Assembly: GCA_036172245.1 (NCBI GenBank)
Contig: JAYWIR010000031.1
Span: 2,666,001 to 2,719,394 of the forward strand
Direction of reading: 5' to 3'
Length of the DNA: 53,394 bases
Source: Raillietiella orientalis
Taxonomy: Eukaryota
The notes below the pieces were generated by a model. That model saw only the letters and a program-made list of their open reading frames with translations, searched no databases and had not been told where the DNA came from. Positions 16,907 through 53,394 of this stretch are shown one piece after another (position 1 is the stretch's first letter; every line of letters starts with the position of its first letter). The position numbers were made by a program, and so were the translations under genes.

Positions 16907-17770
16907 TCAGTGTTTCATTATGCTGTAAGGTGTTTTCACATCATTTTTGTAGCAATCAGGAATTAGTAGGTTTAAAACAGCGTGAGTGATTATAGCACTT
17001 ATGCCCCAGATTTTGTATTTGAGGTTCACATACACTGGTGCATCATATGTGCTTTTTGAAAGTCTAAAAGTAGTGTACCTGAAGTTCTGGGGATTACATA
17101 AATCTTCTACAGCAACACAGAATACATCTTGCACTTCAGCTGCATTCATTTTGAGGTTAGTCAGAGAAAATGAATTCACCATTCCAACTACTGGAATTAT
17201 AAGTGAACCGGCACTTCTCGTTGGAACAGGTGGCAATTCACCCCACACATCTATGTTTGTTTTCTGTATCCCTATTTCTTCTTCTGTTTCCCGCAGGGCG
17301 GTGGCGGCCGCAGATGAATCACATGGATGTGGATTTCCTCCGGGAAAACTAACTTCTCCTCTATGTTTTCTTAGTGTATAAGATCGCAATGTATAAAGTA
17401 ACTTTACATCTTGGTTTAATTTGCAGAACAGCACCAACACACCCGCTTTCTTTTGCATACTCCCCATAGCCGCGTTGCACTTTAGATTGGAAGTTTGTTT
17501 CAAAAAATTCGCTTTGTTAATCCCTGCTGCTAAACGCCCCATCAGTGGGCTACCACATTCGTGTTTATGCCACTTTTCTTGAAAGGTGCCTTTTGCTATA
17601 TTGCATGGCAACAAAATGCGACAACCTTGACGGCTGGTTGTTGCACTGTGGCTGCCGCCATCGAACCGTCCGCAACTCGACGGTGCGACTACGAAGGGGA
17701 GAGGCAGGAAGGCCAGCCGTGGATCCCCATTAATCGGGAATGCAGATGAAGGATATATGAAGGCACTCAT
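16907..17770 (-). CDS. NUDT8: Nudix hydrolase of the CoA-diphosphatase (NUDT7/8) family, closest to NUDT8; single exon
   Basis: AGVLVLFC...LLYTLRSxxLRKHRGEVSFPGG (CoA-pyrophosphatase motif) directly before the Nudix box GGNPHPCDSSAAATALRETEEEIG; later MNAAEVQDVF and IWGISAII. The true start may be a downstream ATG (MGRLAAG...). Confidence 0.9.
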   Translation of the reverse strand: MSAFIYPSSAFPINGDPRLAFLPLPFVVAPSSCGRFDGGSHSATTSRQGCRILLPCNIAKGTFQEKWHKHECGSPLMGRLAAGINKANFLKQTSNLKCNAAMGSMQKKAGVLVLFCKLNQDVKLLYTLRSYTLRKHRGEVSFPGGNPHPCDSSAAATALRETEEEIGIQKTNIDVWGELPPVPTRSAGSLIIPVVGMVNSFSLTNLKMNAAEVQDVFCVAVEDLCNPQNFRYTTFRLSKSTYDAPVYVNLKYKIWGISAIITHAVLNLLIPDCYKNDVKTPYSIMKH

Positions 17771-32404: not shown

Positions 32405-34410
32405 TCGTTGAAATTGTCGGCTTTCGGTACGCCGTACGTGCGCTTGCCTCCGACAGCCAGTCGCGCTGCAGGGCACGGAAGAATGCCGTCCGTGCCACGC
32501 GCGCGTGACCGCCGCTCGGCGCGTACACGCTCGTGACGACGAGATCGATCGAGCAGGACCACCTGAAGGTGATTTGCCAGAATCCACCATTCTCATTGAA
32601 ACGGACTTTCCGCACCACGCGCTGTAGAGCAGGCTTAAGAAGGAAAGCGACCCGCGCGGTGACCGCATCTCCACATAAGCTGACCATCTGCTATCCTCTC
32701 GATCTCCTGCGCATGTTCTGCGGAGATCTGATGGATCTCCTGCAGCAGCACGAGCTCGAAGGCTTGCAAAGTGACAGCTATGTCTCGTCTCCAGCCGTCA
32801 TCGAAATGCCAGTTGACCTTCCAACTGGCGATGTGTGTTTGACGGCAGGTGGCGAGTCCCGGCATTACTGCTGGGGAAGTGATGCTGCGTCTCCTGCCTC
32901 CCATCGGGCGGGATGCTATGTGACTGCTCTACAATGGGGGCGCCTCGACACCTCCCTCCGCTTCCATCGGCTCCGCCTTGACCGCGCATGGGAGTTCAGG
33001 ACACGTATCCATTTCTCCACCGATCGCCACAACCTCGTTTCCGGAGGATTCTCCTTCCTCAGAGGAGACGATCCTTCTCGGGTTACGGATCTTCCGTCCA
33101 GACTTCCTCGAGAGTGCATACGCGGATGGTGTGTGTCCGGCCTCCGGGTCGGAGTCCGAGGTCCCAGTCCCCCTCCTTTCGGCCGGACGTCGAACGGCCA
33201 TCTTTCCGGCCTTTGAGGGCTGCTGCGGAACGGCGGAGAGCTCGTCGGCGGCTTTCGCAAAGTCCGCGTCATTGAGGCTCTCTCTTTCGACGCAGCCCTC
33301 GGACCCTGTTTGCACAGCGACGGGGCTGTTGGCGTTGTTGCACACGGCAACGGCCTGTTCTCACGGCACTTCGGCGTCTGCAATACGTACCAGTGCGTTC
33401 GTGGCTTTTTTTGAGTCTCTGCTTTTTCGCAGGTTTCGTGGATTTTGGAGGGACTTTATTGTTCTTTTTTGTTTTATCCTTCTTGTGGCTGGACTTTTGC
33501 CAGTCAGGCTCTTCTTCCACCTGGGTTGCCTGCCTTACCGCAGACGGGGTGGTCGGCACGGCCTTTTTGGCTGGCTCCGGGTCAACCGTTTTTCGGACGT
33601 CGGACTGGGTTTACCAGGCTTCTTGTTGCTCGCGTTCGTGCCGCTCGCGGCTGCTGCCGGTCCGCGCGATTTGTTTTGGGGGCACACTTCTTCCATGTGC
33701 CCCGTTGCCTCCCACTTGCGGCAGGTGATGTTGGAACAGCGTTTCTTTCCGTGCCCCTTAGCATCACAGAACGCGCAGATAGCGATGTCGACAGAATCTC
33801 CGCCGCCTACCAGTTTGTGGGGAACCCCAACATCCTTGGCGACTGTGATAAGCGCCGCGAAGAGTCCGCTCAGGAGCCCGTCGTAGGTACGGAATCTATT
33901 GGGCTCGTCGCATAGTGCGTGCACGGTGCCGAATTTGCTAATTTAACCCCTGACGGCGCTCGGCGACCTCCTTTGGGTGATTCCTCTAAGGTGGACAACT
34001 ATCGAGTTGTTCACCGGAACGGGGGAGAGCTGGCGGCCCTCGATACTCACGGGCAGCAGTCTGCGGCACACCTGCCTCTTTGCAGGTCAGCTCGACGTGC
34101 TGCCACCCGCTGCGGATGGAGAGTCCCGCTCTTTCTTAGATACAATCAAACGGTGGAGCTCCTGCTCGAAAGAGCATGCCACACAGTCACCAACCACGCA
34201 GCCTACTTTATACAGCAGGCTGGGGTTGTAATTATGGGCCTCATAGGTCTGGGCCTCGGCCATGCCCGCTGTAGATGGCGCGGCGACCACGGCGCTGTAG
34301 TCGGTAACTGGCGCAGTGGACAAGGCTTCGGGTGCTGATGCCCTCACCTGCATGGGGACGATGGACGTTTGACTGTCGCACCTCGACATTCTGTAGTGGT
34401 GGATTCAAAT
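32405..34410 (-). mobile_element. Tx1 LINE fragment T8: nearly whole ORF1 (type A) plus start of the ORF2 endonuclease, decayed
   Basis: YEAHNYNPSLLYKV; CAFCDAKGHGKKRCSNITC...GHMEEVC knuckles; TAATG stop-start at 32867-32863; WKVN..LLQEIH..SVYAPSG, ending at the GDFN-equivalent. Confidence 0.88.
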
Positions 34411-35040
34411 ATTTCTGCCATCCTCCGACACCACTGGACGCGAAGATGTGGCAAGCCCAATTGTGTCAGGTGAGGGGAGACGGAACACCTCCCGCACTTG
34501 TTATTGGATTGTGTTGGACTCCAGCCCCTATGGGAACGCTTTGTGGCGGCGTATGGAATCTCCAGGAGCAACCCCAGAGACCCTTTGAGACCGCTCTTCG
34601 TCCGTGATGCTCTGCCGCCAGAGGCCATGCTTGCAGCCCTGTTCTGCCTACGCGGGATCGTCGCTGCATGGAGCAAAGCGACGGGACGAACTAGCGATAG
34701 GGATGCCGCCGCATACGCCTCCCGCTACCTCAGGAAGGCGAAGCGATGGCCCCATCTAGAACCACGTACCAAGCAACAGCTTCCCGGCTTCCTCCAGAGG
34801 ATGACGTACCCTTCCAGCAGACAGTGATCCCTTCCTGTTCCCTCCACAGTTTTGTTTATTTTTTGTTTTTTTTTGTTTCGTGCTTCCTGTCATCTGCTGG
34901 CGAGGTCGACTGCACCGGTCTGCGCACCAGGAACCCTTCAGGCTGATAGTATCTAGGGCGTGGCTGGACTACTGGTCCGGAAACTGGATTAAAAAATGTT
35001 TGTCTGCAAGAATAAACGCCCCAGGGCAACCGGGTTTGAA
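34410..35040 (+). mobile_element. Tx1 LINE fragment T9: ORF2 C-terminus plus 3' UTR and terminus
   Basis: Homologous to T5 (LLDC...RPLFVRDALPPEA...RWPHL...*, stop at 34825-34827); AATAAACGCCCCAGG-GCAA-CCGGG end. Confidence 0.85.
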
Positions 35041-36165
35041 CGGAGACTCTGGAGCTTGACGCCTCTCTGGAATTGGTGGAGATCTTCGACCTCATCTGGG
35101 AGTTTCGTGCAGCCCCCTACAGGCGCCATGCTCTGGACAGGGGTCCCTCGTCGCGTGGTCATACGTCGAATACGAGACGGTAATGGTCGCAAAGCGTCGA
35201 CGAAAGTCTTGCTCGTTTCGCTTCACGTTCGCACATGTCGTGGACGAGGTAGACGCGGTCGATGCTGTACTTGATTTCCAGATCTCCCTCCATCCAGTTG
35301 CGCGCCCGCATAAGGGCACAGAAGTTGATGGGCGCGTTATTCTGCGTGCAGGACGCAACTTTCAACAGGCGGAGGTTGAAGTTCACAGCTATCAGGTTGG
35401 TTCTGCGCATTCCTGCACTCCTCAGCCAACCATGTTTCAGGTACTGGCAGAACTGAGTTTGTTCAGCGTACCTTTTGTTTCCTATTGGAGAGTACACGTT
35501 AGTAACTACGAGGTTGAGGTTTTGGTTCCGCCTGAGTATCAGCTGGGTGTCCTGTCTGCCAATGTCGAAGCACACGCCCTTCATGGGACCGGCGACGGCT
35601 AACTTGATTAAAAACGCGACCCCACAGGTGTTGTGGTCGCCGCCGTGCCAAATCAGTCGCTCTCCCGCGATCCCCTCGATCTCGTGGACGTTTTTCGCAG
35701 TGATTACGTGCATCTCCTGCCGATGCTCCAGGTCGAAGTCACGCAGGGTGGAGACTGTGTCTCGTCTGCTAATGTCGTTGCGTTCCCACAGTCCACGAGG
35801 ATCTGTAGGCGACTGGTGAATCTAGGTATTATTCCTGGGAATGTGGCACGGCCGCTCTCGTTTCCTGATCTTTTAGAGCACAAGGAAGAGGATGTGCTTC
35901 CTGTAGCTCTTCTCGCTTTTCCATGGGATCGACTGATCAGCAGGACCGCATGGTGGGAGCGGGGAGTCACTCACCTGCTTACCCTCCTCCCTGGGGTAAC
36001 CTGTGGTGCGGCGTTGGAGCGTGGTGGATTCGCGTCATTGGTTTGCACGCTGTCCTCTTCTCCTCAATTGCCGGCCCATTCGCCTCGCAGCGTGGTGGGA
36101 TTGGTCTCTTCGGCTCCTTACGTCCTGACTTCCGGGGGTTGCCTCTGTGGAAGAGGATGAGCTCA
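35041..36165 (-). mobile_element. Tx1 LINE fragment T10: ORF1 tail plus APE endonuclease domain
   Basis: ORF 35159-35713 contains HNTCGVAFLIK, VTNVYSP, IAVNFN, SIDRVYL and LCDHY; ORF1 stop TAA at 35831-35829. Confidence 0.88.
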
Positions 36166-37399
36166 CGGTATTTCGTTGCCGAATGTGGATTTCCTGATAA
36201 TTGTAAATTTTATTAGTAGATCCATAAAATGTTTCAGCTATTGCTTTTAAAGTTGAATTTTTCGGCCTATTACGAAACATCGATAACTGGGATTTGAAGA
36301 AGAGGACTACCACATGTTAGCAGCAACCAGAAGTAGGATTTCTGTTTTCAAATGAGATTCTCGAAGCAACACAACTTATTTTTGAAGTTAAGACTGCTTG
36401 ATGTTCTTCAGAAGAGTATTTTAGCGTTCTGACCAAGAGGCAACGGTGAAAACTTCCCAGAGAAATAGATGGAATGTCAAATGTTCGATGTAAGGATGCA
36501 GCATCCTTTAAGTTTCCATGAGATGGGAGTGATTGCGAAGTACTTCGAGGAGAACAATTGTAATAATGGATTCATTCATTACTAATCTTCCGTTTTTATA
36601 TTGTCACATCAGATAAGCCTTAGCATCCTCGATCTACCGAAAGCCGAATTTACGCACAGACGTTAGAATGGTCAAAGCAGGAGATGTTCTTCATGTGGGA
36701 TGCTTATTGTTTTATAGTTGCATATCATCCGATGAAGGCATGCATGAAGTTATCCTTGTATGGAAAAAGGAAGATTATTTTTTTTTCTTTATTTCTTATT
36801 TGTAACTGCGGGATGGTGAAACATGTCGGCTGCTGAATAGTGTTTGCAGTTGTATGGTTGATTGCTGGAAAAATGCAATTACTGAATGTAATCGATAACA
36901 ACATCTACGGAATAGTGCTCTATTTTGTTAGCATTAAGGTGTGCAGGGTTATGAGTTGATAAATATCTATTTGGTACTATGATGTAATATGGTATAAAAG
37001 AAATGTCATGATAGGGGGGTTAAACGAGGGAGCTAGCATGGTTATTGTTTGCGTGTTATTGCTGGCTACTCAGATCTGGGTTGTTGGTTTGGTTGGAAGA
37101 TGGGTGAGAACTTGTCAAACATCGATAGCTTATTGGGTCCCGTTCTACATCTGAGGAGTTTGCAAATGTAGTCTGGACGTTTGCTTCATTGGAAGGAGTT
37201 ATCCTGAATGCAGGCGGTTGCATCTTTGAAAGTGTACTGAACCTCTAATTCTTCACGGTCGTTGCCTGAACTTTGCAGAAATTTCTAGGTATCGGAATTC
37301 ATTGAAAAGAATAGTTTTTCTTCAACAGATTACATGGTCTAGACCAAATTTCTACAAGGCAACAGCGAGCACACCATCATTCCAGGACCTCGCGAATGA

Positions 37400-38200
37400 T
37401 AGCATGATCCGCTAAAGCTCTTGCACGTTGCATTCTACCAGCAAATTGCTCCTAATTTTCATAATGCTCGTAATCCGGAAGATATAAAGGCGGAAACAGA
37501 CAGTCTTTCACAAAGAATGTGCTGCAGAGCACAGAATACCAACAGATACTTTTATCAAAGTACAAGAGAAATGTACTTCCCGCAGTTAAGGATTCGTCGA
37601 AGACCATACCGTATTGCTGGTGGGGATTTTAAGAACTGAACTCAATGTTGCCAAGCGACGGGAGTCGAAAAACTTCAAATCGAAAACGCTGTCCAGGAAA
37701 GTGCAATAAGCTGATGACAATCTTACCCAGTTTCCTGAGATATTCATGTCAACTACCATTTCTCCTCAAGATACCGTCCATATAATCAACAGCGCGGCTC
37801 CTTACTGCTCTTCAAAGTGTATTTTGCTGAAAGTTTCGAACAAAAAGGACACTTCAGAATTGCTACAAATCCGAGACACCCTACAAACCGCAGTTTAGTA
37901 ATGCAGTAGCACTCATCGCATTCCCGTGATAGCAAAAGAAAGTCTGCGGGAGGCAGCAATGTGGGCAAGAACACAACTGTGGATTGCGCGAGGCAGGCTG
38001 AGTCCCGGAAATCTCGGCATCCCGTGCATGCAGCGAGCGAATGAAAGCATTAGGAGAGTGCTTCGCCTAAGGAGGGCCTCTATTCAGCAGGAGCACATTC
38101 CAGATTCCTGTGACACACCTGTGAGAGAAGCTCTATCTCACCGAAGTGCGGGAGCAACAGTGAGAAAGCGCTTTGTTGCCGTTGCCTAGGCAATAGCTGC
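37400..38200 (+). mobile_element. Decayed APE endonuclease fragment of an older AT-rich LINE (CR1/L2-like)
   Basis: IAGGDFK (GDFN-like) followed by a DDNLTQ-like segment; otherwise degenerate. Confidence 0.3.
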
Positions 38201-38499
38201 TGGATCGAGATAAGCGCATGCACTTCATTCTCCTCAATGTTTGTACCTGTCTACAGCATTTCTTGCGTCGGTTTTCTCATCTTCGGTGTTGCCCTGAACC
38301 TGCCAGGTGGGTAGTTTCCTTCCTTGAAGCCTAATAAGCTGAACTTCAGTAGTGAGTAGAGCACAAGCTGCCTGAGCCAAAATCTGAATCCCAATCCTAA
38401 TTACAGGATGCTGCTTTTGCATCTCGGGAAGATTCGCTAAAACCACGAAAAACAGTTACTTCCATGCCTCGTTTAGGAATGTCACCTTGGACGTTCTAG

Positions 38500-41400
38500 T
38501 GGTTCTTCAAACACATCTTCCACTGAGGACTTAGAGGGTTGCACAACTGCAGCGGTGTAACCTGAGAAAAAACCGTTCTTTTGGTTTCTCTAATCGAAGA
38601 AATTCACGCTGTCTCCGCTGTTGCGGATAGAGGATCTGTTATGAAGCTGCTGTATTTCCTAAATTTCTTTGCTGTTTTAGATCTGTACTCTCGATGTCCC
38701 GCTGCAGTAAATTTTGTTAGAAGCTATACTTTTATCTATCTTGATAAACAAGACATTGCGATAGCGGGTTTCCATACGAGGCCATAATTGCAGCAGCCTT
38801 CAAGCATGCAGCGAACTTTCAGACGTTATCATCTGAATGCAGGAGCAAGAAAGCGCATCGCTGGCCCGGCGCTCTAGTACAATACTCAACCTTCTCACAT
38901 AGAGTAATTACTTTGGTTTATTAGCATACTTGGTTTTTCATGTGTCCTTTTCCAAATATTCCTAAGGTCATCCTTGCATTGTGGATGCATAGTGGTATGT
39001 GTTTCTTGCATGCGCAAAAATGCTCTTGAGGACTCCCAAGACTAAGATGCATGGTCATCTAGCGACCGTGATTTCCATTTCATTGCATCCATGTTTGCAT
39101 AGGAGCAAACTCGCTCGCTTTCTGAGAATCAAAAATCATGAGCCCTACCCAGGAAATCTCGCACACACATCTGGTTTGTTGTATTCGTACTCAGGAACTG
39201 TAAGACTTGCCAAAAGCAAGTCTTACCGTTTCTGAATTTCCTGCTCATGTGGCCTACATGTGTTGCTCCTGCACCAGAAGCGTTCCGTGTACACGGTGGA
39301 TTACGCCTTGCCCCATTTCCACAGGTGTCAGGAGATAAACAGATCCAAACCTCCTCTTTAGTTTCCATGTCCACGGCAGATAGTTTGTTTTGCTCGTGGC
39401 TCCATGTATCATTGGTATGCTCTTTCCCACCATCCACGTTTTTCATCAAAGCTCTCTTCTTGCACCTTGAGGCTCGTGTGCACCAGTAAACAGAGCAAGA
39501 CGCTCTAACGCACCGAAGATTCCTGTGATGAATCGTTGCAGGGTCACATTGGCGAGTGTGCAGTTTTTTCAAACCACCAGGGTGCCGCATTTGCCGGTAA
39601 GCATTCCTTCTTCAAGAGGCTGTGAATGAAGATGCAAATGATTCATCCTTTGCAGCGCACATGGATGTATAGGAAAATTTTGCTTCTTCGTCAATGGAGC
39701 TGCTGAGGTGTCGCGTGTTATGCCGTGGAAAGCTGACCGAATTTTTTCCATAATGCTGAACTTCAAAATCCTTGAAAGAATTTCGAAAACAATTTAAGAA
39801 AATTAAGATATGATTGATGCATACAATGGATTGCGTATTCATTAGTCCCGGTTGCAATACAGGGTGAATGCTCTCCTCGATTAAAGGCACTCCAAAGGTA
39901 GAGCAATGGATCCGAAGGACAATGGGCAAATGACAAATGCTGCAATAAGAGAAGACATCCGTCTTTCGCCTTGCTTGAGATCCAGTATTGCTGCATACAT
40001 AAGAACCGCGGCTGGAGAATTCGGACTCAGCATTCCGGAAATGTCATTTGCCCCATGTATGGCCTTCCTGCAAGAGAGTCTGCATGGGATCTATGGCAGC
40101 AGAAATGAAAGCTTCTTCTTCTTGTATTAGCCTTTTTCCACCTGTTTAGCAACTCGGAAGCAGAACAACAAATGTGCAAGCGCTAGCGCTCAGAAAGTTG
40201 AGTTGTTCCTCCCTTCTGCTCATGAATAAAACAAAACTAATTTCAATCTGCGCTTACACCCCTGAATATGCCTGTCAAGATACGCAGAAAGGTCTCGTGG
40301 GATTCCAAAACACCACGTGTTTTTCATGTCTGGAGCTTCGTTCCCTGTGAGGCGATGTTGCTCAGCTGTTTTACCGGCGCTCTGAATATTTTAAATAGCG
40401 TGTTTATTCAGTCTAAGATTCTCCTTCGTTTGGGGAGTCGTAGAGAAATATTGTATATCGGTATGAAGATTTTATGGTTGGGACTTTGCCCAGATTGCCT
40501 TCCACTGCTCTGATTAAGATTTCGCATAAACGACTGAGTGAGCGAACAAGGATGAGACTCTTTCTAAAGTTACTGTCGAAAAAACCATTCCATTTACTGT
40601 CCTCAACACCGTGTCATCCAGATCGATCATGCGATACATTATCATGAATTTTGAACATCACTTAATTCACAATATTATTCTCAAAGATTTATTTGTGGTT
40701 TTGCTTAGCTCTAAATGAAAAACATTTTCTCCTTTTCAGTGCAATTACTTGAAATTTTCAGATAGTCCCTAGAAAACATTCAATGTTCACGAGGACTTTG
40801 ACCTCATTTTCTTCCTTATTATCATTTTTGTCCTTTCCGATTTTTACCCGACATCAGCAAAAGCAGCTCGGAAGAAAGCATAACCACAGTAGTTGCCAGT
40901 ATAAACGCAGTCATAGGAATGTTCCTTATCCTCGAAGCAACGAAGCATACTTTTCGAAAGAAGTCTCACCTTTATACTTCTCTCGCTTCTCAATTGGGAG
41001 AATGACACCAAGGATTTGAATGGTTTACTACTTACTTTAGCATGGAAGCATCCCTATGATAATCTTCAGCGAAACACCTTGAGCAAACAGCTAAGCAACG
41101 TACCATATCTTTAAGCTCCTATTAATCACATTTAGGCTTGTTTTCACCTTTCAACCCTGGTTTCTCCTCCCTGAATCGAACTCACTTTTCATTAGTACGC
41201 AGTATTTCCGCATACAAACTTTCCATATATTAATAGTAGCAGTAGTGATCAACGGCTTCCCGATATGCCTCTCTCTGTTCCCAACTTCGTTTCAGCGGAT
41301 AAAGTGAGCATAAGGAATTGAGAGGGAGAAAAGTGGACGAAGCGCACAGAAGGATGCTCGCAACATCCATTGCTGCAGTCAAACCTTTCTTTCTGTTCCA

Positions 41401-42750
41401 GAAAAGAGTTCTCCCATTTGTTATTCCACCTTTCGCATCAGCTTCGAATTGGCTGCTGCTCTCCGCGAACATCAGGAAGAAATGATGCAGCGGACCACAC
41501 ATACATAAGCGCTCACAAGCATGAGAGGAGTACGCAGCTCATGAAGAGGAATCTTGAGTTTTCTCTTCGATCCTGAAGAAAAAAAATTCTGAGAAATCTG
41601 CTAGCATGCATGGAGATGATGTGTTTGTGTTTTGACAACAACCATATTGCGGTACTTACGCAAGGGGTTCGCCTGTTGTGCTCCCTCGATCAACTATAAA
41701 TTGACCGACTCCGCACCACATTCTAAGAAAGGAACTTCAGTTCTTCTAATATCTGAGTGCGTTCTTCTTTTTGCTTCAGAGAGGAAGTGCAGAGGAATTT
41801 CGGCATAATGATGCTTCCAAATGTGCGTATGGGGTTAGCTTCTTTCAAATTCTCAAGTGCTAATGAAGTTATTATGGAGGAAATGTCTGATGATTATGCA
41901 GACAACCTGTTGGGCGGGTAGGGCGTTTTGATGGTGAACGTTCGCGAAACACCGAATGCAAACCAGCAAGCATACCGCAACTTGAAAAATGCACGCTAGG
42001 GCCTACTCTCATGCGAAACGCTCCCTCTCGAGGATTTACGAAAATTCGCCCTTCCTAAGCTGGCGAAGGAATGGCTCTTTCGTGTTTCTGAATTCAAAGG
42101 CGAAGATGTATTGCAAAATGCCGCCCCATTCTGCGGTTTCGTACCTCTCCTCGATGGGTGCAACTGTAAGGTATACGCTGACCAAGTGAGAGGTTTTACC
42201 TTATGTCAACATCGTCGAAAACACACTCGTACGGTGATAGATATGCAAGAGCAGGGGATTGGAACAACGGAAATATTTGCTTCACATTTATTACTGTCAA
42301 GGTAGCTCCAGAGGAAAGAATCTTCGAAGCTTGAAAAATTAAACTCATCTCTGCATACTGAAGGTGGAAACGCCAAATAGGATAAAGATACAACACGCGT
42401 TATTTAGAATACGGGGAGTATTGAAGCAATCACGTTGTGCAATGGTCTTTCTGCTATGTTGAAGCACAACTCCCTTTTTTCGAGAGTTTCCATGTGCATT
42501 TGAGATCGAGGCGAGAATAGTGATTGACTTTCCCAGCCTCCAATCTGGACCTCTGCCCGCCATGCACAACATAGTAGAAGGTTTTCGTTTTGAGAAATTT
42601 CACGTTTCAGTGGCTGCTGATGGTGATGGCAGTTTTCTGCCTTAAAATAAACAACGCTGAGAGGAATCCATTGATGTTACGACAGATTGTTAACGAAGTC
42701 ACGTTTGCGGATCCCAGAGGAAAGTGTTCATTCACCCCAGTGACGGTATC
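38500..42750 (-). mobile_element. Heavily decayed CR1/L2-type LINE ORF2 remnant
   Basis: Colinear degenerate motifs on the minus strand: LTICRNINGF (~42680, EN start), QWKA..KV.P (~40490), VLMYA (~40000, YADD site), KDF(G)V..VSF..H (~39750), ARMTLG (~38970), and NYGLVWKP plus an IE(R)VQ-like motif (~38690-38790). Confidence 0.45.
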
Positions 42751-43845
42751 TCCATGGGGACCGTGCGAGGTAGCATGGAGTTCGGATAAGTTGCCTACAC
42801 CTCAAACGCACTCTTGTTCAGTGACGGTGACGGTAAGGAGGCAGTGCACATGCAGAAAGATTACATCGTTTTTCTTAGTCGTTTTATGGAGCTCCGTTGA
42901 ATGTATCAATCTATCCTTACTTCCTGAAAGGACCATGTACTTGCAAAGTGACACCTGAATTCGAGTAAGACACCTTCCTAATTAAGCATTCCAACATCAG
43001 CTTCCCTCCCGCATAAATAACGCATCCGTGTTTCCTTATGCTTTGGACATGCACTTACTCTTTAAACTTCCGCTTTTTCTGCTGCTTCCATGACGGCATA
43101 ACCGCCAGCCTGGATAGAAGCATCTGCCACAAATTGATAAGGCATGAAAGCAATACGCTCGGTTTCGACTTAGGTCGTATTTGCATCATCTAACATCGAA
43201 ACTCGGAAACCAATCGAACCTAAATTTTTAATTTCCCAGCGCTACCTTAGTCTCCCGAAATTGTCAGTTTTCTGCTCAAAACCCTTGTACTTTGCTTCCA
43301 AAATGCGCAAATCTATGAGAGGGTTTGGGCAACCTTCCCACAAAAATGAGCCGATGAGCCTTCAGGAATGTGAGCAACATTGAAAATGCGCAACCACTTT
43401 GCAATCGCAAGGAAACCTTTTTTCTTAAACACAATCTTTCAGGGACTCGGATGGAAAAGCTGTCATCGTGGTTCCAACGCCATTTTATGTCAATTGCACG
43501 TTTGGGAAAGACTCCCTTTGCCTTTTGGATTTTATAAAAACTGCTGAGATCCAAGAAAACCAAAATCATGAGTAGAGAAAACAGCCTTTCATGTTTTTTG
43601 GCTTGTAGTGAAGAAATGAACTGAAAATAAACATACTGTTAAGATTCATGTCTACTTGCTGCTTGTGCCGTGCTGATGAATGAAAGTCACTATTCGTCGT
43701 GCAAGGTGACGGTTTAATGATGACCTCAACATTTTACCAAGAAAACACAGACAAAATCACAGCCTTTAAAATATTCGTTTGCAAGAAAAAGAATCCAATT
43801 TTTCCAATGCAATTAGCAATTTTTGAAATTGGCTCCCCCAAGGCG

Positions 43846-44094
43846 TCATGAGAATCCTAATGGTGATAGAATAATACGAAATTCAACCCTTACCTTTTGT
43901 AGAGATACCATTGCTTTGCCTGCGCGTCTACAATAGTCTTGACCAAAAGGATGCCTACTGTAAAGTGTCCGAATCTTGGTGGGAACCGGAGACGTTAGGA
44001 GCCACCTACGCAGAGATAAGGGTTCCGCCTGAAGAAGTCTCATTCGAGAAGTCGATGTTTCTGAAGCATAACTACACGAAGATGTAAAGACCAA
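43846..44094 (-). mobile_element. Short RTE-like LINE C-terminal remnant
   Basis: SYASETS...RLLQAEPLSLRRWL resembles the RTE post-RT motif TYxSETW...FExxCLRRIL. Confidence 0.35.
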
Positions 44095-44299
44095 TCATCG
44101 AACGGCTCCCTCAAAGAGCTCACCACACACTAGAGAGCATTATAGTGGAATTGAAAATGTATTTCGTTTTTACTCTGGTGTATAAAAGTGGTGCTCTCTT
44201 GAACTCAATTGACCGGTAAAGAAGTTTACTCCAATCATAGGGGCAATCAAGTCATTTGAAATTCTGAAAGACTCGCTATATAATTGAAAGCCGCGAAAT

Positions 44300-45650
44300 T
44301 CCATGTATCAGGTTTTCATGATAATTTGCAACGGGACACGGAGGCACATCAGGAACGTCGCCATAAAATGTCCCTGGGTATGCCTCCGTCTATGTTCAGG
44401 ATCGTAGCAAAGCCATCCCAGAGGAGGAAGAAAGCGATGCAGTTCACAAGAAAGTGGGGAAAGTTCCCTCGTATCCGCACCGTGCAGACAGGGCATCTCC
44501 ATTTCCATTAGTCCAGTGGGTGAGGCGTACTTTGCAGGGTGATCTCCAGTGCAAAACGAGTAACATCATCTCCTCTGACTTCGGCGGAAGGGAGCCAATG
44601 TTCCAACACGCTCGGGGCCACTTCACCTCCTCCGGAGGTAATGCGAGTAGCTCGCCCCAACGTAAAAGTTCATAGGGCGGGACACACGGGTTCGCAGCTT
44701 CCGCTAACTGCAGAGATGCTCGCGCCTGTATCGATGGAGTCCCGGTGACCATGAAGCTGGACACTTTCCGAATTCACTGCTTGTTACTGTATTTAAAGTA
44801 CACTAAATAAGGCAGCACTGGAACATGAGGGATAACCTGCTCCCACAGAAGCTTGCTTCGGGATTGCACGAATTACTGCAGCGTCTAGAGAGCGTGCCCC
44901 CTCAGGCAACTGTTTCTTGTATCGCTCGGGACGTGGATCTTTTCTCACGTGAAGACTGACTACCACAGCCATGCGGAGTAGTTTCCGGGAAGATCGAAGG
45001 TTCAGGCGTTCTCCCGAAACGCAACTTCCATTCGCTGCAGCTGCGGTCCCCATTGGGTGAGCCTGCCTCAGAGCTTCTTCAGAAAAGCGGAAGTCCTCCG
45101 GATCCTGAGGCTCGTTACGATAAGTGCCTTGCTTTGTCGCACCAAGGCTTGTCCCATAATTCCGAGCAAGGGCAAGAGTCCAGAATCGGAGCTAAAGCTT
45201 CTGGAGCTCGAAACTGAGGAGGCGAATTCTTACGTCCCCTCGTGGAGCACGCAAGTCTTTTAACCGCAAGCGGGAACTCCCTTTGCCCCACAGTACTGTT
45301 CACAGAAGGACCGCTGCTCTCCTTTCCATGAAGTAAGGGGTAGGCAAACAAAAAGCAGGGAGCAGAAGAAGAACACCGGAAATGCGATTAAAACCATCAC
45401 CCGTTCCTGCAATTAAAACCTGCCTTCGTGCAACGAATCAAACGCCAACGATGACTTTTGGAGACGGTCGGATCAGTCTCCTGCTGCGCCGAACTCCATC
45501 AACGAAATACCAGCATAATTGAAGCACCTGCCCGTGAGGATCCCCAATCGGATTCCGTCCAGCCACCCAGCCCACGTGCAGTCGACAAAAGGATGAACGA
45601 CTTCGTTCCGTTCAGCTGCAGGCTAGTCCCACAGCGTCGCAATTCACGCT
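44300..45650 (-). mobile_element. Tx1 LINE fragment T11: ORF2 RT end to Zn-finger region, diverged subfamily
   Basis: IRLGILTGRCFNY (RT7 region) and VKWPRACWNIGSLPPKSEEMMLLVLHWRSPCKVRLTHW...ARCG. Confidence 0.75.
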
Positions 45651-45654
45651 CTCA

Positions 45655-46722
45655 AAGAAATCCTCGAGCGCGGACATTGAATTCCCCTGTTATCAGATGA
45701 GTCTTCCGCACGTCCGTATCCACCAGCCAGTCGCCATCAAAGGTTTTCTGCAACACATTCCGATCATTGCAACTCCGCCTGACTCTGGTAGCGTTTGTGA
45801 CGATGAGATCGATCGAGTCGGACCATGAGTGAGTCAGTTGGCCGACCCGACTGTCGTCCTCAAAGTGCGGGCCCTTCACGGCAGCGTCGACGGCTGGCTC
45901 GACAAAGAACACGACCTCACAGGTGTTCCGGGCGCCGCAGCGGTAGTGCAACCAATCCCTCGCGATAGCTTCGAGCTCCTGGGCGTCTGCTACAATGATC
46001 TCGTGGATCTCCTGCAGGTGGAGCGCCAGGTCGAAGTCACGCAGGATGACGGCTGTGTGCCGTCTCTTGCCATGGTTGCGCAGCCCGTTGACTTTCCAAC
46101 AGGCCACGCGGATCTGATGGGGACAGGCGAGTCCAGGTTTTATGCATCGGAACCTGGCGGTGTAGCTCCCGTCACCTGATGGGGCGGGACTCTAGAAGGG
46201 GGTGGCTTTTCGCCCATCTGCTTACCCTCCTCCATACGTGCGGACGTCTCCGGCTCCTAGCACGAAGGTGATGTTTCGCCAACCTGTACGCCCACCTCCA
46301 TGGATGCGGACTGTTCAGCTCGGCGCATGCAGGAGTGCTTCTCTCCCTTGCACACACCTCACTATGGGAATCTCCTGCTCGCCGGCTTTCGCGCGCGGGA
46401 GATCCAAGTCTTGTGCTCTCACGCTGACGTGTATGTCCACGGCTTCCATTTCATCCCCGACGCTCGGAGCTGAAATGCACCTCCTCGGCTTCTCGGACTT
46501 CCATCCTGATTTCCGCGAAGGTGCCTCCGAGGAGGACAACAAACTTCCGGCCTTGCAGGTCGGACTCACCTGCGGGGGCCACTTTTGCCGGTGCCAGCCT
46601 ACGCACCTTCTTCCGCGAGGCGTTCTGACGCTCGCCGAGCGTTGCTGCCAGCTCCTCCGCCGCCTACTCGAAGGCCGCATCCTCGCTGCCGGCGAGCTTG
46701 TCGCGCGACTGAGCCTCTCCGT
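45655..46722 (-). mobile_element. Tx1 LINE fragment T12: ORF1 tail plus endonuclease N-half
   Basis: ORF 45652-46107 ACWKVNGLR..LQEIH..NTCEVVFFV..ITGEFN; ORF1 stop TAA at 46142-46140. Confidence 0.88.
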
Positions 46723-47700
46723 TTGCACCCGCATATGCCGGACCATTTATTTTTTCAAATAAATATACAGTTAATTTTCGCATGGTGAACCCAAGGGCTC
46801 ACCAAATCAAGACAGCCTGCTGCTTGCCGGTGTTCGACCGGCGAGGTCCTTCCGTGGCGAGGGGCTAGGAAGAAGGAAACAAAAAGAAACAAATAGTTCC
46901 AACGTGGAGAGGGCAAATGCATTTTGAGTATCGGAGGGCGGGGAAGAAATCACAGTGCGCGTCTAGGGGTCCCTTTGTTCCTGTTTAGGATCCTAGCAAG
47001 CTGCGTTCTGCTAGCGTCCAAGTTGGGTTACCTGGAAATGTTCTTCACAAAGATGCATGACCGATGGATGGCATCCTTGCCATTTCGGCCTCTTCTCCTG
47101 GATGCGTTCCAGGTCGACACGATTGCGCAAATGCAGCATAGCACTGCAACAAACGCGGCTGGAGGAAGGTCGGCTCTCGTGAACAGGCGCGTGAAGATGT
47201 CCCTGCGGCTGCCTCCGGGAATGTTCAGCATCGTCGAATGACGAACTCAAAGCGGGCGGAAGGCGATGCAGTCCACAATAAGGTAGGGAAATATTCCTTT
47301 TTTACCACACAGATCGTAAGGTGGAACCACAGACTCACGTGTGCAGTGAGAGAGGCGTGCTTCGAAGTGTAAACCCAATATAAAACAAGCAACGCCACCT
47401 CCTGCCATTCCAAAAAGAGAGAACCACTGTTCCAGGATGCTAAGGGCCACTTCATCTCCTCCGGAGATAGTCCGAGTAGCTCGTTCTAGCATAAAATTCC
47501 GTTGGGCGTTACACTCGCCGTCTCAGCTGCCGAGATGTCCATTCCTTTCTCACTTTTGCACCATGGACGACAGGACACAACACTTTCCATTTCTATAGCT
47601 CGCTGCTGTCCCTGGAGTTCTCAAGGAAGGGCAGCATTGGGGCAAATGGGGTAATGAGAACCCTTAAAAGCTTATCGTGAGACTGCAAGATCTCATGCAG
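46722..47700 (-). mobile_element. Tx1 LINE fragment T13: ORF2 C-terminus plus 3' UTR and terminus
   Basis: DIFTRLFTRADLPPAAFVAVLCCICAIVSTW is homologous to T5/T9; stop at ~46952-46950; AATAAATGGTCCGG..GCGGGTGCAAA end. Confidence 0.8.
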
Positions 47701-47749
47701 CGTCCAGGGGGCGTCTTTTTAGGCAAGTGTTTATTGTGCTTTCCAAAAC

Positions 47750-48240
47750 GTGGACCTTTTCCACGTGGAGACTGACTAGTGTAGCCATCCAGAGTCGTTA
47801 CCGGGTAGGCACGAGATCCAAGCGTTCTCCCGGACTACAAAGGCCATGCGACGCAGCTGAAAGAGGCAACGCGTTTGTGAGCAGTCGTGCATTGACAGAA
47901 ACGACGAAAGCACGCCGAATCCGGAGGTTCTTTGGGCCAGGAGGCATGATGGAAAGCACCACGAAGTGTCCCACAGTGCCGCCTAAAGGGTGAGAGTCCT
48001 GAAGAGAAGTGGCAGTTCCCGGCGCTTCAGCGCAAGTGGGCCAAGTCCATCGTCCTTGCGTGGGGCGCACAAGTCTCTAAGTCACACGGGACCCTCCATT
48101 GCCCCAAAGACTGTCCAAAGGAGGCCTCCTCTTCTTCCGGAAAAGCGACGGGCGCGGCAGCTCCTGGAGGGCACCGCATTCAGACAGCAAATGCGGAAGC
48201 GATTCCATCGCTCCGCATTTGGCACAGTTCGGGGAAGCAA
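47750..48240 (-). mobile_element. Tx1 LINE fragment T14: ORF1 (type A) middle with Zn knuckles
   Basis: Minus strand reads WFPGDLLPRTVPNAERWNRFRICC and a knuckle-like C..CAEA-GH/..LLQDSH region homologous to 51960-52080. Confidence 0.55.
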
Positions 48241-50158
48241 ATCCCCCGGAAACCAGGTGCGCGCGCTGGTTGCAGTAAAGACCACAATGTACCAGCAGAA
48301 ATGCGCCCTCTTACCAACAAAGGAGGAAGAAAGTCGAGTGCAAACACGCAGAAAAGACCAAAAGTTCTTCGGGCACCGCGAGGAGCTCGCTTCACCGAAG
48401 ATGTCCCCTGGCACGAAAGCGATGTGTGGGCAGCGTCTACCAGCTCGCAACTCCGCCAGTCGCCAAGCGGTCGGGTTTCGCCTGCAATTTCGCAAGCAAA
48501 CTTCCACCTCTCCGGTAAATCACTGTCGTCTCGCACCATCAGTGCACACAGTGCTTCGGCAAGAGGCGTAGCGGCTAAGCTTGTGCGCTGGTTCTGGTCT
48601 TCCAACACCTCTCCCACTGGACAGTATGGGGAAAGGTTCACGCAACGGAGTTCCAAACGTGACACATCCGGTTGCGCTGCCCAGGACGATAAGGATTCCT
48701 GCCTCTAGGCGTTGAGGTTCGTCGGCCGGAAGGAGATCCACGTATGCTTTCCCAGAAGCGAGGCGAGCTGTTTCAAAGGGTAGCCGAATCCTTCCAAAAT
48801 GCACTCCGTGCGCTGGTGCAACCAACGCTGTCAGTCGCCACCCGTGCAGCGCCGTAGCAGCAGCCGCGCTGGAGCACACCAGAAAGTAGTCCAAAGCTAG
48901 GAACGAAGAGCCAGGATGCGGAACTGCACTAGCAATTCCAGGTCAGTATTTCCAATCCAGCAACAAACCGAGGAGCCGCTAAGTCCCTGAGGCGGATCCT
49001 GGACCTCGCCGGTTTCCACAAGGCGTTTCGCAACAGGCGCTCCGCCCGGCGCTTAGCCGAGAAGGGAGGGGGACAAAAAAAAAGGGAACGGAGAAGGGCG
49101 GCAACGAAGGTGAATGAATGCTCGTTCCACATGAATGCTCGTTCCGAAAGGAGGAAACTGCCGCCTTGGAACAGGCCCAGAGCATTCTCGACCTTGTGAA
49201 GGCATTCCGACCACGCTTCTGCTAAACAGAAGGCGCCCAAGGGAACACCAACTTACTTAAAGCACCTGCCCGTGGGGATCCCCAGGGGGATCTAGTCGGA
49301 CTGCCCCTCCCACTTAGAGCCAACCGGTACAACGGTTGATTTCCTCCTGTTGACGATCAGGCCCGCCCCCCGACGAATGAGCTCGAAGAAGTCCTCGAGC
49401 CTGGACGCCAGGGTGGACATGGGCAGCAGCAGGGGAAGGTCGTCAGCATAGGCGGCCACGGCCGGAGTTCCCGGACAGGAGCTCGGCAGGTTGGCCAGCG
49501 TCAGCCTGTACGCCCTCAGCACTAACTGAAAGAAGATGCTGAGGAACAAGGGGCTTAAGCTGTCTCCGTGCCTGATACCCCGCCGTATGGGAATGCCGTA
49601 CACGTGGCGCCCGCTGAAGGAGATACAGCATAACGCGTGGCGCCAGCAGTAGCGCATGTAGGCGATGAGGTGCTTCGGGAGGCCTAGGCGTCCCAGAAGC
49701 TCCAGGAGGTCCTGGTTTACGCTGTCGAACGCTTTGCAGAGATCGAAGGCGACCGCTAAGGCCTTCGGCGTTTCATCGTGCCTTGAACACCGCCGCTTAC
49801 ATTTGGCAGCGGCGATTTCGGCTGCCTGGCTCTGCTGAGCCACGCGCTGCTGCAACTAGAACCACGATCAGGCGAAGAAGAGATTCGCGTCCATGGACCG
49901 CCCCGGAACAGCATACTTCTGCTCCGGACTTACCAAAGACATTCTCTCCAGCCGCGCGACCCAAAGTTTCGAGAACAACTTGAAGTCCGAAGTCACCAAG
50001 GTGATCGGACGGCAGTTGTTGAGGCGGCGCAAATCCCCGCCTTTCGGCAGGAGCCGTCCCCTTGCTGAGCGGAAAGAAGAGGGAACATTTCCCGTCTTCC
50101 GAATCAGAGCAGTTCGCGTACGGACATGCTTTTGCGTCGCTCCGCGGTAGGCTGACTC
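48240..50158 (-). mobile_element. Tx1 LINE fragment T15: ORF2 RT and downstream region, decayed
   Basis: LLPKGGDLRRLNNCRPITLVTSDFKLFSKLW, PGRSMDAN, FDLCKAFD, RRGIRHGDSLSP and AYADD. Confidence 0.92.
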
Positions 50159-50970
50159 TTGTGTGTTTTTGTTCTGCTGTGCTTCTGCGCTGCAATGAGA
50201 GCAAAGAAGAACATCAGCCGCAAGGAGGGAACGGTACCTGCTCCTAAGATGGCGGTTTCGGCTGCTAACAAGGAGCCACTGTCCTCGCCGACGGCGAGGA
50301 CGTTCGCCCAGGTCGCTGCCCTCGCCGCTACTATGGGACCTTCGTCCGACAGCCCTGAGCTGCAGGCATATGTAGCAAATGGCTACACGCCTGCACTCAG
50401 GTATAAGGTAAGTGTCCTTAAGCCTGAGCGGGTTGGCCGCGAGTTTGGCCAGGAACTCCAACGGATTGGAGTTCAGAAAGTCCAGCTGGAGTTCATCATG
50501 TCCATGAGTGGGTGCGGCTACTGGGAGGTGTCCACTAAGGACGCTCTCCTTACGCAGCGTTTGCTGCACACGCCGCTGCTCATTCGTGGGCAGGAAATAC
50601 TCTTCACCACTACGGATCAGTCGTTCGTTGTCCGGCTGAGTGGACTGAGCAAGGGCCTTTCGGACCGACAGGTCGTGGAGGCCCTTGAAAAATTCGCCAC
50701 CGTTCACGCGCTTTGGAGGTTGCCAAACCCTGCTGAGGGTTTCGAAGACCATCACAGCGGGCTCGCGCAAGTGCGAGTGACGATGGTGGATCGCCGGGCA
50801 ATGCCCACGAGATTGCAGGTGGATGAAATGACAGTCCGCCTGTGGTTTGCGGGCAAACGCTGATGTGCGCGGAATGCGGGCAGGAGGGATACCGCCTTAC
50901 GAAGTGTGCCTCGGCCGCTCGCCGTTACTGCCACGAGCCCGGGCACACAAAAGAGACGTGCCCTGAGCTC
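50159..50970 (+). mobile_element. Tx1 LINE fragment T16: ORF1 (type B), RRM-like region and two CCHC knuckles, one frameshift
   Basis: ATG at 50195; TFAQVAA motif, FVVRLSGL..LEKFATV, GLAQVRV and WFAG, then CAECGQEGYRLTKC / YCHEPGHTKETC in the shifted frame. Confidence 0.85.
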
Positions 50971-51311
50971 CTTTTAAAAAACGAAAAGCGCAGAACGAAG
51001 CCCGTATCGCATCGCGAAATAAGCGCCGCGAATGGAGGGGAAAAAACCTCAAAACTTCGGAGAGCGTTGCTAAAACCGCGAGCGTGCATGCGCAGAAAAC
51101 TCTTTCTCCCCTCCACAAAAAAGGGGAGAAAAACATGGAAAAACGCGTCGCGGCGAAGCCTTAGGCTACCAAGCCGACGGAAGCTCGCGAGCATTGCGAC
51201 CCAACCCTGAGAGCTCGTTGGGGACGGACGTGTTTTTCCTTCGCTCCCGAGAGAGTCGAAAAAAAGGCGCTTTCTCTTGGTTCGTTTTGTGTGGAACATC
51301 GTTGGTGTCCG

Positions 51312-52933
51312 ATGGCATCCTTGCCTGAGGACACCACGATGGAGGTAGAAGTGGTGGAGGCTTGCCCACCCCCACAGCCTACAGAATCAGAGGCGTCCGC
51401 CCCAGAATCGACCTCGCCGCCCAAGGCGAGGAGCTGGAGCGCCATGGTGGCCGCGCCCAGCGGGGAGGCCATGGCCGAGATGGCTGCCTACCGGGTAGCT
51501 GGGAACAAGCGCAGCCTAGTTAATCAGGTAGGCAACCTCTTTGATGGGCGAACTGCACGCGCCTTCACGAATGCGCTGCAGAACGCCAATATTCTGGAAA
51601 AGGACCTTGACGGTCTCTCCGTGCTTAGCGGGGGTCAGCGCGTCGAGGTTGTCTGTAAGGACATTACCTTGGCGCAAAGCCTAATCACCACCCCGCTGAA
51701 CATAAACGGGCGAAGATCCTGCCAGTCACGATGGACCGCTCCGTAGTGGTCCATCTGACTGGCATCACCAGCCGCATGACGCGGTCTGCGGTTGGTGAAC
51801 AATTAAGAAAATACGGTGAGGTGCACGCGCTGTGGCCTAAACCCACGATTTTTAACGGCTATGATAGCCTTTTCAGGGGGCAGGCCGCCGCGCGTGTTAC
51901 CGTGAACGAGGGTGGAGCGCTACCTCACAAGCTGGAGGTCTACCAAGAGCCGGTGGACCTCTGGTTCGTGGGGAAACACCGCTACTGCGGGTACTGTAAT
52001 GCAGTAGGACACCTCCGCAAAAGGTGCCCGAATATACAGTGCCACTTGTGCGGGGAGCGGGGCCACGTTCAACGCGTGTGCTTCAAGCGCCCCACCCCGG
52101 TGCCACCTGCCGCCAAAAAGGCGCAGGTGAAGAAGGAGAAAAAGCTCGCAAGACCTAAAGTAGAAAGTGGCCGGCAGAAACTGCCAGCACCTCAACCTCC
52201 GGCACAAAAGCCGGAGGATAAGCCTTCCCAAGTAGTGGGAGGGAAAGAGGGCTTGCAGGTTGTTAAGGCCAGAAAGGCGAAGAAAGGTCCATCCGCGGAG
52301 AAGAAAGAGCGTAAGACGGTGGGTAAGCCGAAAAAACCCGGTCCGCGCTCGAAAACTCTGCGCGAGTGCACGGTGGCACTGGAACGCATCGTCGTTCCCG
52401 AGGCTGCCACTCGGGGCGACGAGCCTCCCCTCGCCGTTTCCGACGCGCCCGAGATTCGCGACGGCGAACCCTCTGTTTACACAGAGGGTGAGCCGCGCGC
52501 AGGTGAGTGCGACCTGGGGGCCGGAAGTGCATCCTCCTCGTCGGAGGCACCCCCCCGGAAGACGATACGCAAGTCCCAAAAGCCGAGGAGGCGCCTCCCC
52601 TCCACCAGTGAGGAGGAGAAGACGGAAGCCGTCGCCAGCGTGGGAAATTCGGAGGAGGAATTCCCACGCTCGGAAGCCGTCGAGCAGGCCACCCCCATGG
52701 AGGAGGGTGAACAGGGGGGTGAAGTCCCCCCTGCAGGCGCCGACCCTGAACAGCCCGCCCCCATGGAGGAGGGCGAACAAGTAGGCGCGACCCCACCTGT
52801 GGGTGACCCGCTGGACGCGCAGTTTCCTATGGAGGAGGGGGACCAGGTGCCTTCAGCACCTGACCCTCCTCCTCTACCTAGCGTCCCGCCCCAGCAGGTG
52901 GCGTACGCCGCATCGCCGTTTTTTCTGGACTAA
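51312..52933 (+). pseudogene. LINE ORF1p (RRM-like region, 2 CCHC knuckles, basic linker, acidic repeat tail), single frameshift
   Basis: ORFs 51291-51746 and 51731-52933 join through one indel; homologous pieces occur in T1, T4, T8, T12 and T14. Confidence 0.85.
52692..52850 (+). repeat. 66-bp (22-aa) tandem repeat in the ORF1 tail, PMEEG x3
   Basis: CC(C/T)ATGGAGGAGGG recurs at ~52694, 52760 and 52826. Confidence 0.85.
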
Positions 52934-53394
52934 CACCTGGGCTCGCCAGTCGCCGTCGGATTCGCGCCGCCTGTTGGAATGTCAACGGGCTGCGCGACGA
53001 CGGTAACAGGCGAGATACAGCCGACACCCTGCTGGGAGTTCGACCTGGCCCTGTTGCAGGAGATCCACGTGATCACCGCGGCAGACGTCCAGGAGATCGA
53101 GACGATCGCGGGGAGTCGGCTGTACTGGCAATGCGGCATCCGCAACACCTGCGGGGTCGCGTTCTTCGTGAAGACGGCCATCGACGCTGCCGTGAAGGGC
53201 GTGCGCTTCGCTGACGACGGTCGGGTCGGTCAGCTAATTCTCAGCTGGTCCGACTCGATCGAACTGATCGTCACGAATGTGTACGCCCCCAGCGGTAAAC
53301 AGGGATACAGCGACCGCACCAGGCTGCTGGAATCCCTGAAGCGCGACTGGCTGGCGGACACGAACGTGCGGAAGGCTCACCTGATAGCGGGAGA

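Follow-up and report, generated by a model that had tools for sequence, protein, structure and literature searches.

The window analysed here, the terminal 53,394 nucleotides (nt; 53 kb) of contig JAYWIR010000031.1 in the Raillietiella orientalis assembly (GCA_036172245.1), carries in its GC-rich half a heap of nested fragments of long interspersed nuclear elements (LINEs), in which the junction between the first and the second open reading frame (ORF1 and ORF2) occurs four times (copies a to d, Table 1). As the initial annotation had described, the junctions read TAATG, TAATA, TAAAA and TAACA, every TAA ending the ORF1 frame and giving its final A to a codon (codon 1 of ORF2) in frame with P-G-L-A- or WNVNG-like codons. 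In copy d, which runs off the contig end, an in-frame TAG at 52879 was confirmed and no in-frame ATG was present from there to WNVNG. ORF2s that begin with ACA, or with ATG in families B and H (see below), matched PF03372 (APE endonuclease) and PF00078 (reverse transcriptase, RT) above the cut-off, with zf-RVT zinc-domain matches below the cut-off at the C-terminus; the best structure matches of the ORF2 N-terminus were L1 endonuclease, and ORF1 of copy d gave a weak zf-CCHC match (E 0.001, below the cut-off). By the endonuclease and RT domains the elements are two-ORF, APE-type LINEs (L1/Tx1-like). We report that codon 1 is not ATG in two lineages of these elements, clade A and family G, and that ribosomes probably restart at the stop codon of the first gene without an AUG.

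All four copies in the window are damaged, including copy d (one frameshift near 51713 in its ORF1, another at 53031-53036, near codon 33 of its ORF2), so that decay and lineage state were inseparable from the window alone and the genome was examined, with motif and similarity searches that covered the 210-Mb assembly. ORF2 was only 20-31% identical to the nearest database proteins, and the comparison of junctions was therefore confined to the present genome. The exact motif TAANN-CCNGGNCTCGCC had 455 matches, compared with 2 for a reversed control, which places the junction beyond chance. Codon 1 was ACA in 381 of these matches, ATG in 32 and another triplet in 42 (among the first 100 matches listed: 77 ACA, 9 ACC, 8 ATG, 2 ATA, 2 ATT, 1 AAT and 1 AAA), and a G followed the stop in just one of the 455. 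The 30 copies retrieved from the 40 best matches to copy d all carried ACA, one of them without the stop. A tree of 120 junction-bearing copies, picked by similarity as were the other retrieved samples, set an ATG family (B) apart from an AUG-less clade (A) in which nine or more subfamilies were distinguished. The 62 clade A copies assigned to nine subfamilies comprised 57 with ACA, 3 with ACC (one entire subfamily) and 2 with AAA, a tally outside which stand 26 of the 88 A-type copies in the tree and an assignment that leaves out 14 further variant junctions (TAAAT, TAATA, TAATT and more TAACC) and six ORF1 matches.

A TAATG junction in all intact or majority sequences, which the initial annotation had named as the sign of decay after insertion, was not observed: the majority codon was ACA in eight A subfamilies and ACC in the ninth. 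Of 20 retrieved full-length regions, four carried an open ORF2 of 1195-1198 codons with ACA as codon 1, in which Met first appears at 171 or 79, and a fifth carried an open ORF2 of 1188 codons that starts with ATG. Median divergence from the subfamily majority was as low as 1.1% in A1 and 2.0% in A4, pointing to recent amplification. The non-AUG codon 1 of clade A (ACA or ACC) and of family G (ACG) is a lineage state and not decay. The four different start codons noted in the window fared unequally, ATG and ACA being borne out as lineage states and ATA and AAA occurring here only in old or decayed copies (b is 71% and c 80% identical to the nearest subfamily). Single copies have lost the stop (L017, GAACA; L118, CAACA; and A1 copies such as G000:C53:387104-390637), and no amplified stop-less subfamily was found among 87 A-type junctions. 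Reassignment of a stop codon was rejected, the ORF2s of 1185-1198 codons holding no TAA, TAG or TGA and each of the three closing ORFs in some family. C-to-U editing of codon 1 is unlikely because edited RNA would be copied back into the genome, yet such codons are rare (ATG in 1 of 57 G-type matches; TAATA in 5 of 87 A-type junctions, mostly old).

Table 1. Features of the four LINE copies in the window (positions are those of the window)
Feature	Position	Strand	Remarks
Copy d, junction TAACA	52931..52935	+	ORF1 stop 52931-52933, codon 1 ACA 52933-52935; 94% identical to A1/A2 majority sequences
Copy d, downstream stem-loop within the first 27 codons of ORF2	52942..53014	+	predicted -50.9 kcal/mol; base 11 nt past the T of the stop
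Copy d, upstream GC hairpin in the ORF1 tail	52881..52908	+	predicted; 3' arm ends roughly 31-25 nt ahead of the stop codon; a single arm position is mutated
Copy d, ORF1 with zinc knuckles (weak match) and low-complexity tail	51312..52933	+	tblastn; one frameshift near 51713
Copy d, ORF2 endonuclease N-terminus	52933..53394	+	frameshifted near codon 33; truncated at about codon 154, where the contig ends
Copy a, junction TAATG	32863..32867	-	AUG-bearing family B; 88% identical to B1/B2
Copy a, downstream stem-loop, same structure in an AUG family	32784..32856	-	predicted -32.0 kcal/mol
Copy a, ORF1 and ORF2 endonuclease fragment, decayed	32427..34371	-	tblastn
Copy b, junction TAATA	35827..35831	-	old clade A copy, 71% to nearest subfamily; sole close relative (L102) also ATA
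Copy b, ORF2 endonuclease remnant	35114..35829	-	tblastn
Copy c, junction TAAAA	46138..46142	-	old clade A copy, nearest A4 (80%); closest relatives AAA (L072) and AAT (L073)
Copy c, ORF1 tail and ORF2 endonuclease remnant	45670..46717	-	tblastn; broken at about codon 158

Codon 1 is ATG in six families related to clade A (B, C, D, E, F and H; the outgroup families C-F were found with other window fragments as queries), and its presence at the homologous codon across the outgroups indicates that ATG is ancestral. The junction reads TAATG in B, C and F and TGATG in E. In family D the stop lies 6 nt upstream of its usual place and ATG is retained in 18 of 19 copies, and in families G and H the stop lies 9 nt upstream. 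Among the 57 G-type matches codon 1 was ACG in 52, ACA in 2 and ACC, CCG and ATG in one each; the same match set held 15 matches with ATG to the sister family H, two H-type matches with ACG and two that were apparently unrelated. In a tree spanning the families G joined H (support 100/99), A formed a single clade (100/100), and a clade uniting A and G was rejected (approximately unbiased test, p-AU 0.0003); on this topology the ACG of family G is probably a second, separate loss of the AUG. Families D and E (L179-L202, L209-L212, L219-L222) carry, besides codon 1, another in-frame ATG that lies 15 nt further upstream, and in D the ORF1 stop stands between the two.

The first Met of ORF2 is at codon 64-178 across the A subfamilies and at codon 78 in G. 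In alignment with the human L1 endonuclease, codons 16 and 43 fall on Asn14 and Glu43, both of which are catalytic. The two codons precede the first Met, so that any AUG start would remove the equivalents of these residues. Over codons 1-63 of the nine A majority sequences, synonymous differences exceeded replacement differences (pS 0.248, pN 0.055, dN/dS 0.19, from pairs that are non-independent and with three subfamilies of two members), and the pattern inverted in both wrong frames. Beyond the hairpin described below, codons 27-63 showed 25 synonymous as compared with 14 replacement changes (p about 1e-6). Summed over the branches of crown A, fourfold sites had about 2.0 substitutions per site and positions 1+2 had 0.55; the ratio of positions 1+2 to fourfold sites (0.26-0.28) lies inside the range of the AUG families (0.11-0.73). 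Purifying selection on an AUG-less N-terminus implies AUG-independent translation, and from these sequence comparisons it follows that the endonuclease N-terminus of clade A is translated without an AUG.

A stem-loop over ORF2 codons 4-27, starting at +11 from the T of the stop, is common to all eight families. In an alignment of 13 representatives of these families 86.6% of cells were paired and 11 of 31 pairs showed compensatory (two-sided) changes, a result equalled by none of 500 shuffles, slid registers giving 2-3 two-sided pairs; RNAalifold independently recovered the same fold, and the stem-loop was stabler than synonymous shuffles in 13 of 13 representatives (z -2.8 to -6.6). It begins 8 nt after the stop in A and B; in D, G and H the distance is greater, the stop being placed further upstream there. 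The two stems that the initial annotation had suggested correspond to it in part: the CTGG/CCAG stem (52937-52949) is real in A1 and A2 only, the other A subfamilies reading CCTG, and 52970-52989 is the tip of the longer stem-loop at 52942-53014. In ORF2 codons 40-250 of L132, L138 and L147, more windows folded stabler than synonymous shuffles (z to -5.5), and RNA structure in the 5' part of ORF2 may extend past the first hairpin. A smaller upstream hairpin is predicted in all families. In A-F its 3' arm lies 31 nt ahead of the junction, and one pair changes from C-G to T-A between A/B and C-F. By eye, the second stem of an upstream pseudoknot could be drawn in A1, A2, A5, B1, D and E but not in A4, C and F, and a loop-to-codon-2 pairing, considered for its likeness to pseudoknot PKI of dicistrovirus IGR-type IRESs, in some A subfamilies, though it is not kept in A9 or G. 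A stop-straddling hairpin (6 pairs, TAACA loop) would compete with no essential element; it was left out of the mechanism, being absent or re-registered outside clade A. No 18S-complementary word common to the families was found, the longest complementary words varying by family, and UCCCA, the pairing partner of calicivirus TURBS elements (see below), is missing from the helix-26 region of the host 18S (L151, G000:C360), as placed by a flanking motif. All four bases occur at the -3 Kozak position before ACA.

We favour, with moderate confidence, a SART1-like termination-reinitiation at the ORF1 stop in which the AUG is no longer needed. The ancestral junction would have been TAATG, with ORF2 made by coupled termination-reinitiation. 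The stem-loop, about 9 nt past the first base of codon 1, would stop the post-termination ribosome from moving on, and the smaller upstream hairpin may help to retain it. Restart would then begin at a codon 1 picked by position and not by AUG, which would leave that codon free to change, to ACA or ACC in A and to ACG in G; the simplest codon path would be ATG>ACG>ACA>ACC. By analogy with caliciviruses, Met-tRNAi (the initiator tRNA) on a non-cognate codon is taken as the default. The initial annotation proposed natural AUG-independent reinitiation fixed by the position of the stop. AUG-independent translation follows from the purifying selection on the AUG-less N-terminus, and termination followed by reinitiation is the probable route to it. 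A site fixed by the stop is shown only in part: in D, G and H the stop is displaced by 6 or 9 nt, yet neither codon 1 nor the stem-loop has changed register. The downstream structure thus marks the site at least as well as the stop, and may be the more important of the two.

Several observations weigh against this reading. Constraint on the G branch is weaker, with 8 synonymous and 10 replacement changes (p 0.08) and a ratio near 0.5, and among 13 junctions examined no ORF2 of family G was open throughout. The stem-loop has no greater strength in the AUG-less families than in those with AUG. Elsewhere in ORF2, z <= -4 was reached by 5 of 84 control windows, and the position of the stem base in A and B, 8 nt past the stop, would equally suit a stimulator of -1 frameshifting; the upstream hairpin is weakly significant (z -0.4 to -2.3). 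The grouping of A and B as sisters is weak (82/77) and a shorter protein tree instead placed A with G/H (81/79), so that one loss followed by reversion in H is possible. The copy counts may include duplicated LINE islands and hence be inflated. Finally, ACA and ACC are not near-cognate codons, and in each A subfamily an in-frame near-cognate codon occurs, either no more than 19 nt upstream or else at codon 10 or codon 12, none of them at a common position.

On this last point rests an alternative that is unlikely but carries some weight, namely that Met-tRNAi restarts at a neighbouring near-cognate codon (AUA at -1, overlapping the stop; AUC, AUU or ACG at -13 or -19; AUH or GUG at codon 10 or 12) and that ACA is an ordinary Thr codon. 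None of the A majority sequences lacks a codon of this kind, although about two thirds of random 7-codon windows would contain a near-cognate codon. Where ORF1 ends in GAA, the most frequent context (53 of 87 junctions), the -1 codon is AUA; in 27 of the 87, however, GTA, CTA or TTA stands there, and no position serves all subfamilies. Families D and E carry the extra in-frame ATG at -13, and codons 1-9 change nearly always synonymously (4/5, p 0.03), ACA and ACC both coding for Thr; codons 10 and 12, however, lie within the stem-loop, and a start there would lose the conserved codons 2-9. It is doubtful, with a small chance of being right, that clade A restarts without initiator tRNA, a stem-loop-held ribosome taking elongator Thr-tRNA at codon 1. 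All natural replacements of the AUG (ACA, ACC and ACG) are Thr codons, and non-cognate restart in vitro can employ elongator tRNAs with eIF2D or 80S ribosomes (PMC5972666). If this were true, elongator-tRNA restart, so far found only in reconstituted systems, would be natural and selected.

That ribosomes shift to the -1 frame on the stop, or immediately ahead of it, and so yield an ORF1-ORF2 fusion, with the stem-loop 8 nt downstream as stimulator, is improbable. ORF2 does lie in the -1 frame, which is open for at least 12 codons upstream in the A subfamilies, the distance of the stem from the stop in A and B fits stimulator spacing (5-9 nt past the A-site codon), and Dictyostelium TRE5-A and TRE3-A are said to make ORF2 by a -1 shift (PMC5911963). 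A slippery heptamer (XXXYYYZ), however, was found in the overlap of 0 of 17 majority sequences and in no family. Clade A has G-GAN-TAA in place of the CAG that precedes the stop in B, E and F, and this would allow partial P-site re-pairing in clade A; yet the last ORF1 codon varies among the 87 junctions (GAA 53, GAG 20, GAT 4, GAC 3, AAA 3, GCA 3, GGA 1), so that a frameshift would require several tRNAs. The AUG families, moreover, retain the same stem-loop, and in family G the overlap window is just 3-4 codons, with the stem 20 nt from the stop.

It is very improbable that ORF2 obtains an upstream AUG through splicing, the TTCCCAG before the stop acting as 3' splice site, or from an mRNA that starts internally. 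This pyrimidine-rich motif is kept in A, B, C and F but altered in D and E and missing in G and H. Spliced RNA should leave joined copies, and their near-absence counts against splicing: one of 87 A-type junctions (the old copy b) failed the contiguity test, with no exon join, in a sample whose selection by similarity is biased against joined copies. The view that the AUG-less copies are dead or non-autonomous, moved in trans by the AUG families with their ORF2 untranslated, is hardly credible and largely refuted for clade A, for although the majority of copies are broken, AUG families are present in the same genome and constraint is weaker on the G branch, the catalytic motifs and full-length frames are kept and the excess of fourfold-site substitutions in crown A is incompatible with an untranslated ORF2.

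Other features of the elements concern their ends and insertion sites. In 7 of 11 copies examined, which were chosen partly because of this break, ORF2 breaks at about codon 157, just past the GDFN motif, and is joined to the 5'-end motif of another element (L003, L008, L012, L017, L020, L024 and L030, from subfamilies A1 and A2). Copy c breaks at about codon 158 (45670, minus strand), and in copy d the contig end (53394) falls a few codons short of the site. The common break suggests a sequence-specific insertion of LINE into LINE. The 3' ends, about 3770 nt past the junction (L131-L138, L140, L141, L146 and L147), consist of AATAAA and then a GC hairpin, with no poly(A) tail; L131, L134 and L135 have an identical 3' flank, and in L136 and L138 the 5' end (before ORF1) directly abuts the 3' end of a like element, forming head-to-tail arrays. 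Elsewhere in the window, an uninterrupted host ORF at 16910-17854 (minus strand) encodes a NUDT8-like Nudix protein, the best matches of which are from arthropods and molluscs (45-50% identity).

How LINEs begin translation of ORF2 is a long-open question, in which AUG independence has so far rested on engineered mutants. The present genome offers a natural series, with AUG, ACG, ACA and ACC at one codon, the stop at 0, -6 or -9, and a common covarying stem-loop, that is suited to asking what places the restarting ribosome and which tRNA serves. In practice, annotation based on ATG starts cuts short the endonuclease encoded by a large family that has amplified recently, and such a family would be labelled dead. 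Our literature search, with most subscription papers and the Repbase notes outside its reach, found no description of any LINE whose stop-start overlap had naturally lost the AUG, and passages of PMC5860796, PMC2241872 and PMC3159450 make no mention of one.

R2, Dictyostelium TRE5-A/TRE3-A and Polysphondylium NLTR-B resemble the present elements as non-LTR (long terminal repeat) retrotransposons with frames that lack an initiating Met (PMC13188248, PMC5911963), but R2 has a single ORF behind a ribozyme leader and TRE ORF2 is ascribed to -1 frameshifting, neither being a stop-start overlap whose AUG was lost beside AUG-bearing sisters. The termination upstream ribosomal binding site (TURBS) systems of caliciviruses and influenza B share the stop-start overlap, the indifference to Kozak context and the tolerance of start-codon changes (PMC5972666, PMC3542737), and according to reviews restart in caliciviruses persists when two or three bases of the start codon are changed, mostly still with Met (PMC5972666, PMC10275272). 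The present elements differ in having no UGGGA motif 1 and no common 18S-complementary word, and in that the main structure is downstream. The victorivirus HvV190S likewise has a structured element within about 30-50 nt upstream of the stop-start (PMC5972666); there it is a pseudoknot, whereas here the hairpin is consistent and a second stem can be drawn in only some families.

There is a close likeness in form to SART1 of Bombyx mori, in which UAAUG translational coupling, in work attributed to Kojima (2005), has been described and, according to reviews, requires downstream structure (PMC3894237, PMC5972666, PMC10275272). Both are two-ORF LINEs with a one-base overlap of the stop and the ORF2 start and RNA structure downstream (here predicted). 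SART1 retains its AUG, whereas clade A and family G have replaced theirs beside AUG sisters with the same stem-loop, and an additional upstream hairpin is present here. The SART1-type UAAUG overlap is found in B, C and F, and as TGATG in E, but not in clade A (TAACA/TAACC) or G, for which reason we say that these junctions work like SART1 and not that they are SART1. The naturally AUG-less stop-start overlap is a lineage-level feature. In human L1, too, ORF2 translation is AUG-independent (PMC11485995, PMC5009743, PMC5972666). As is proposed for the elements described here, L1 ORF2 follows the translation of ORF1 and its AUG is dispensable. The two L1 frames are reportedly separated by a 63-nt spacer, and AUG independence is said to have been demonstrated there with engineered mutants, in work attributed to Alisch (2006). 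In the present elements, by contrast, the AUG was lost in nature and the loss has persisted under selection.

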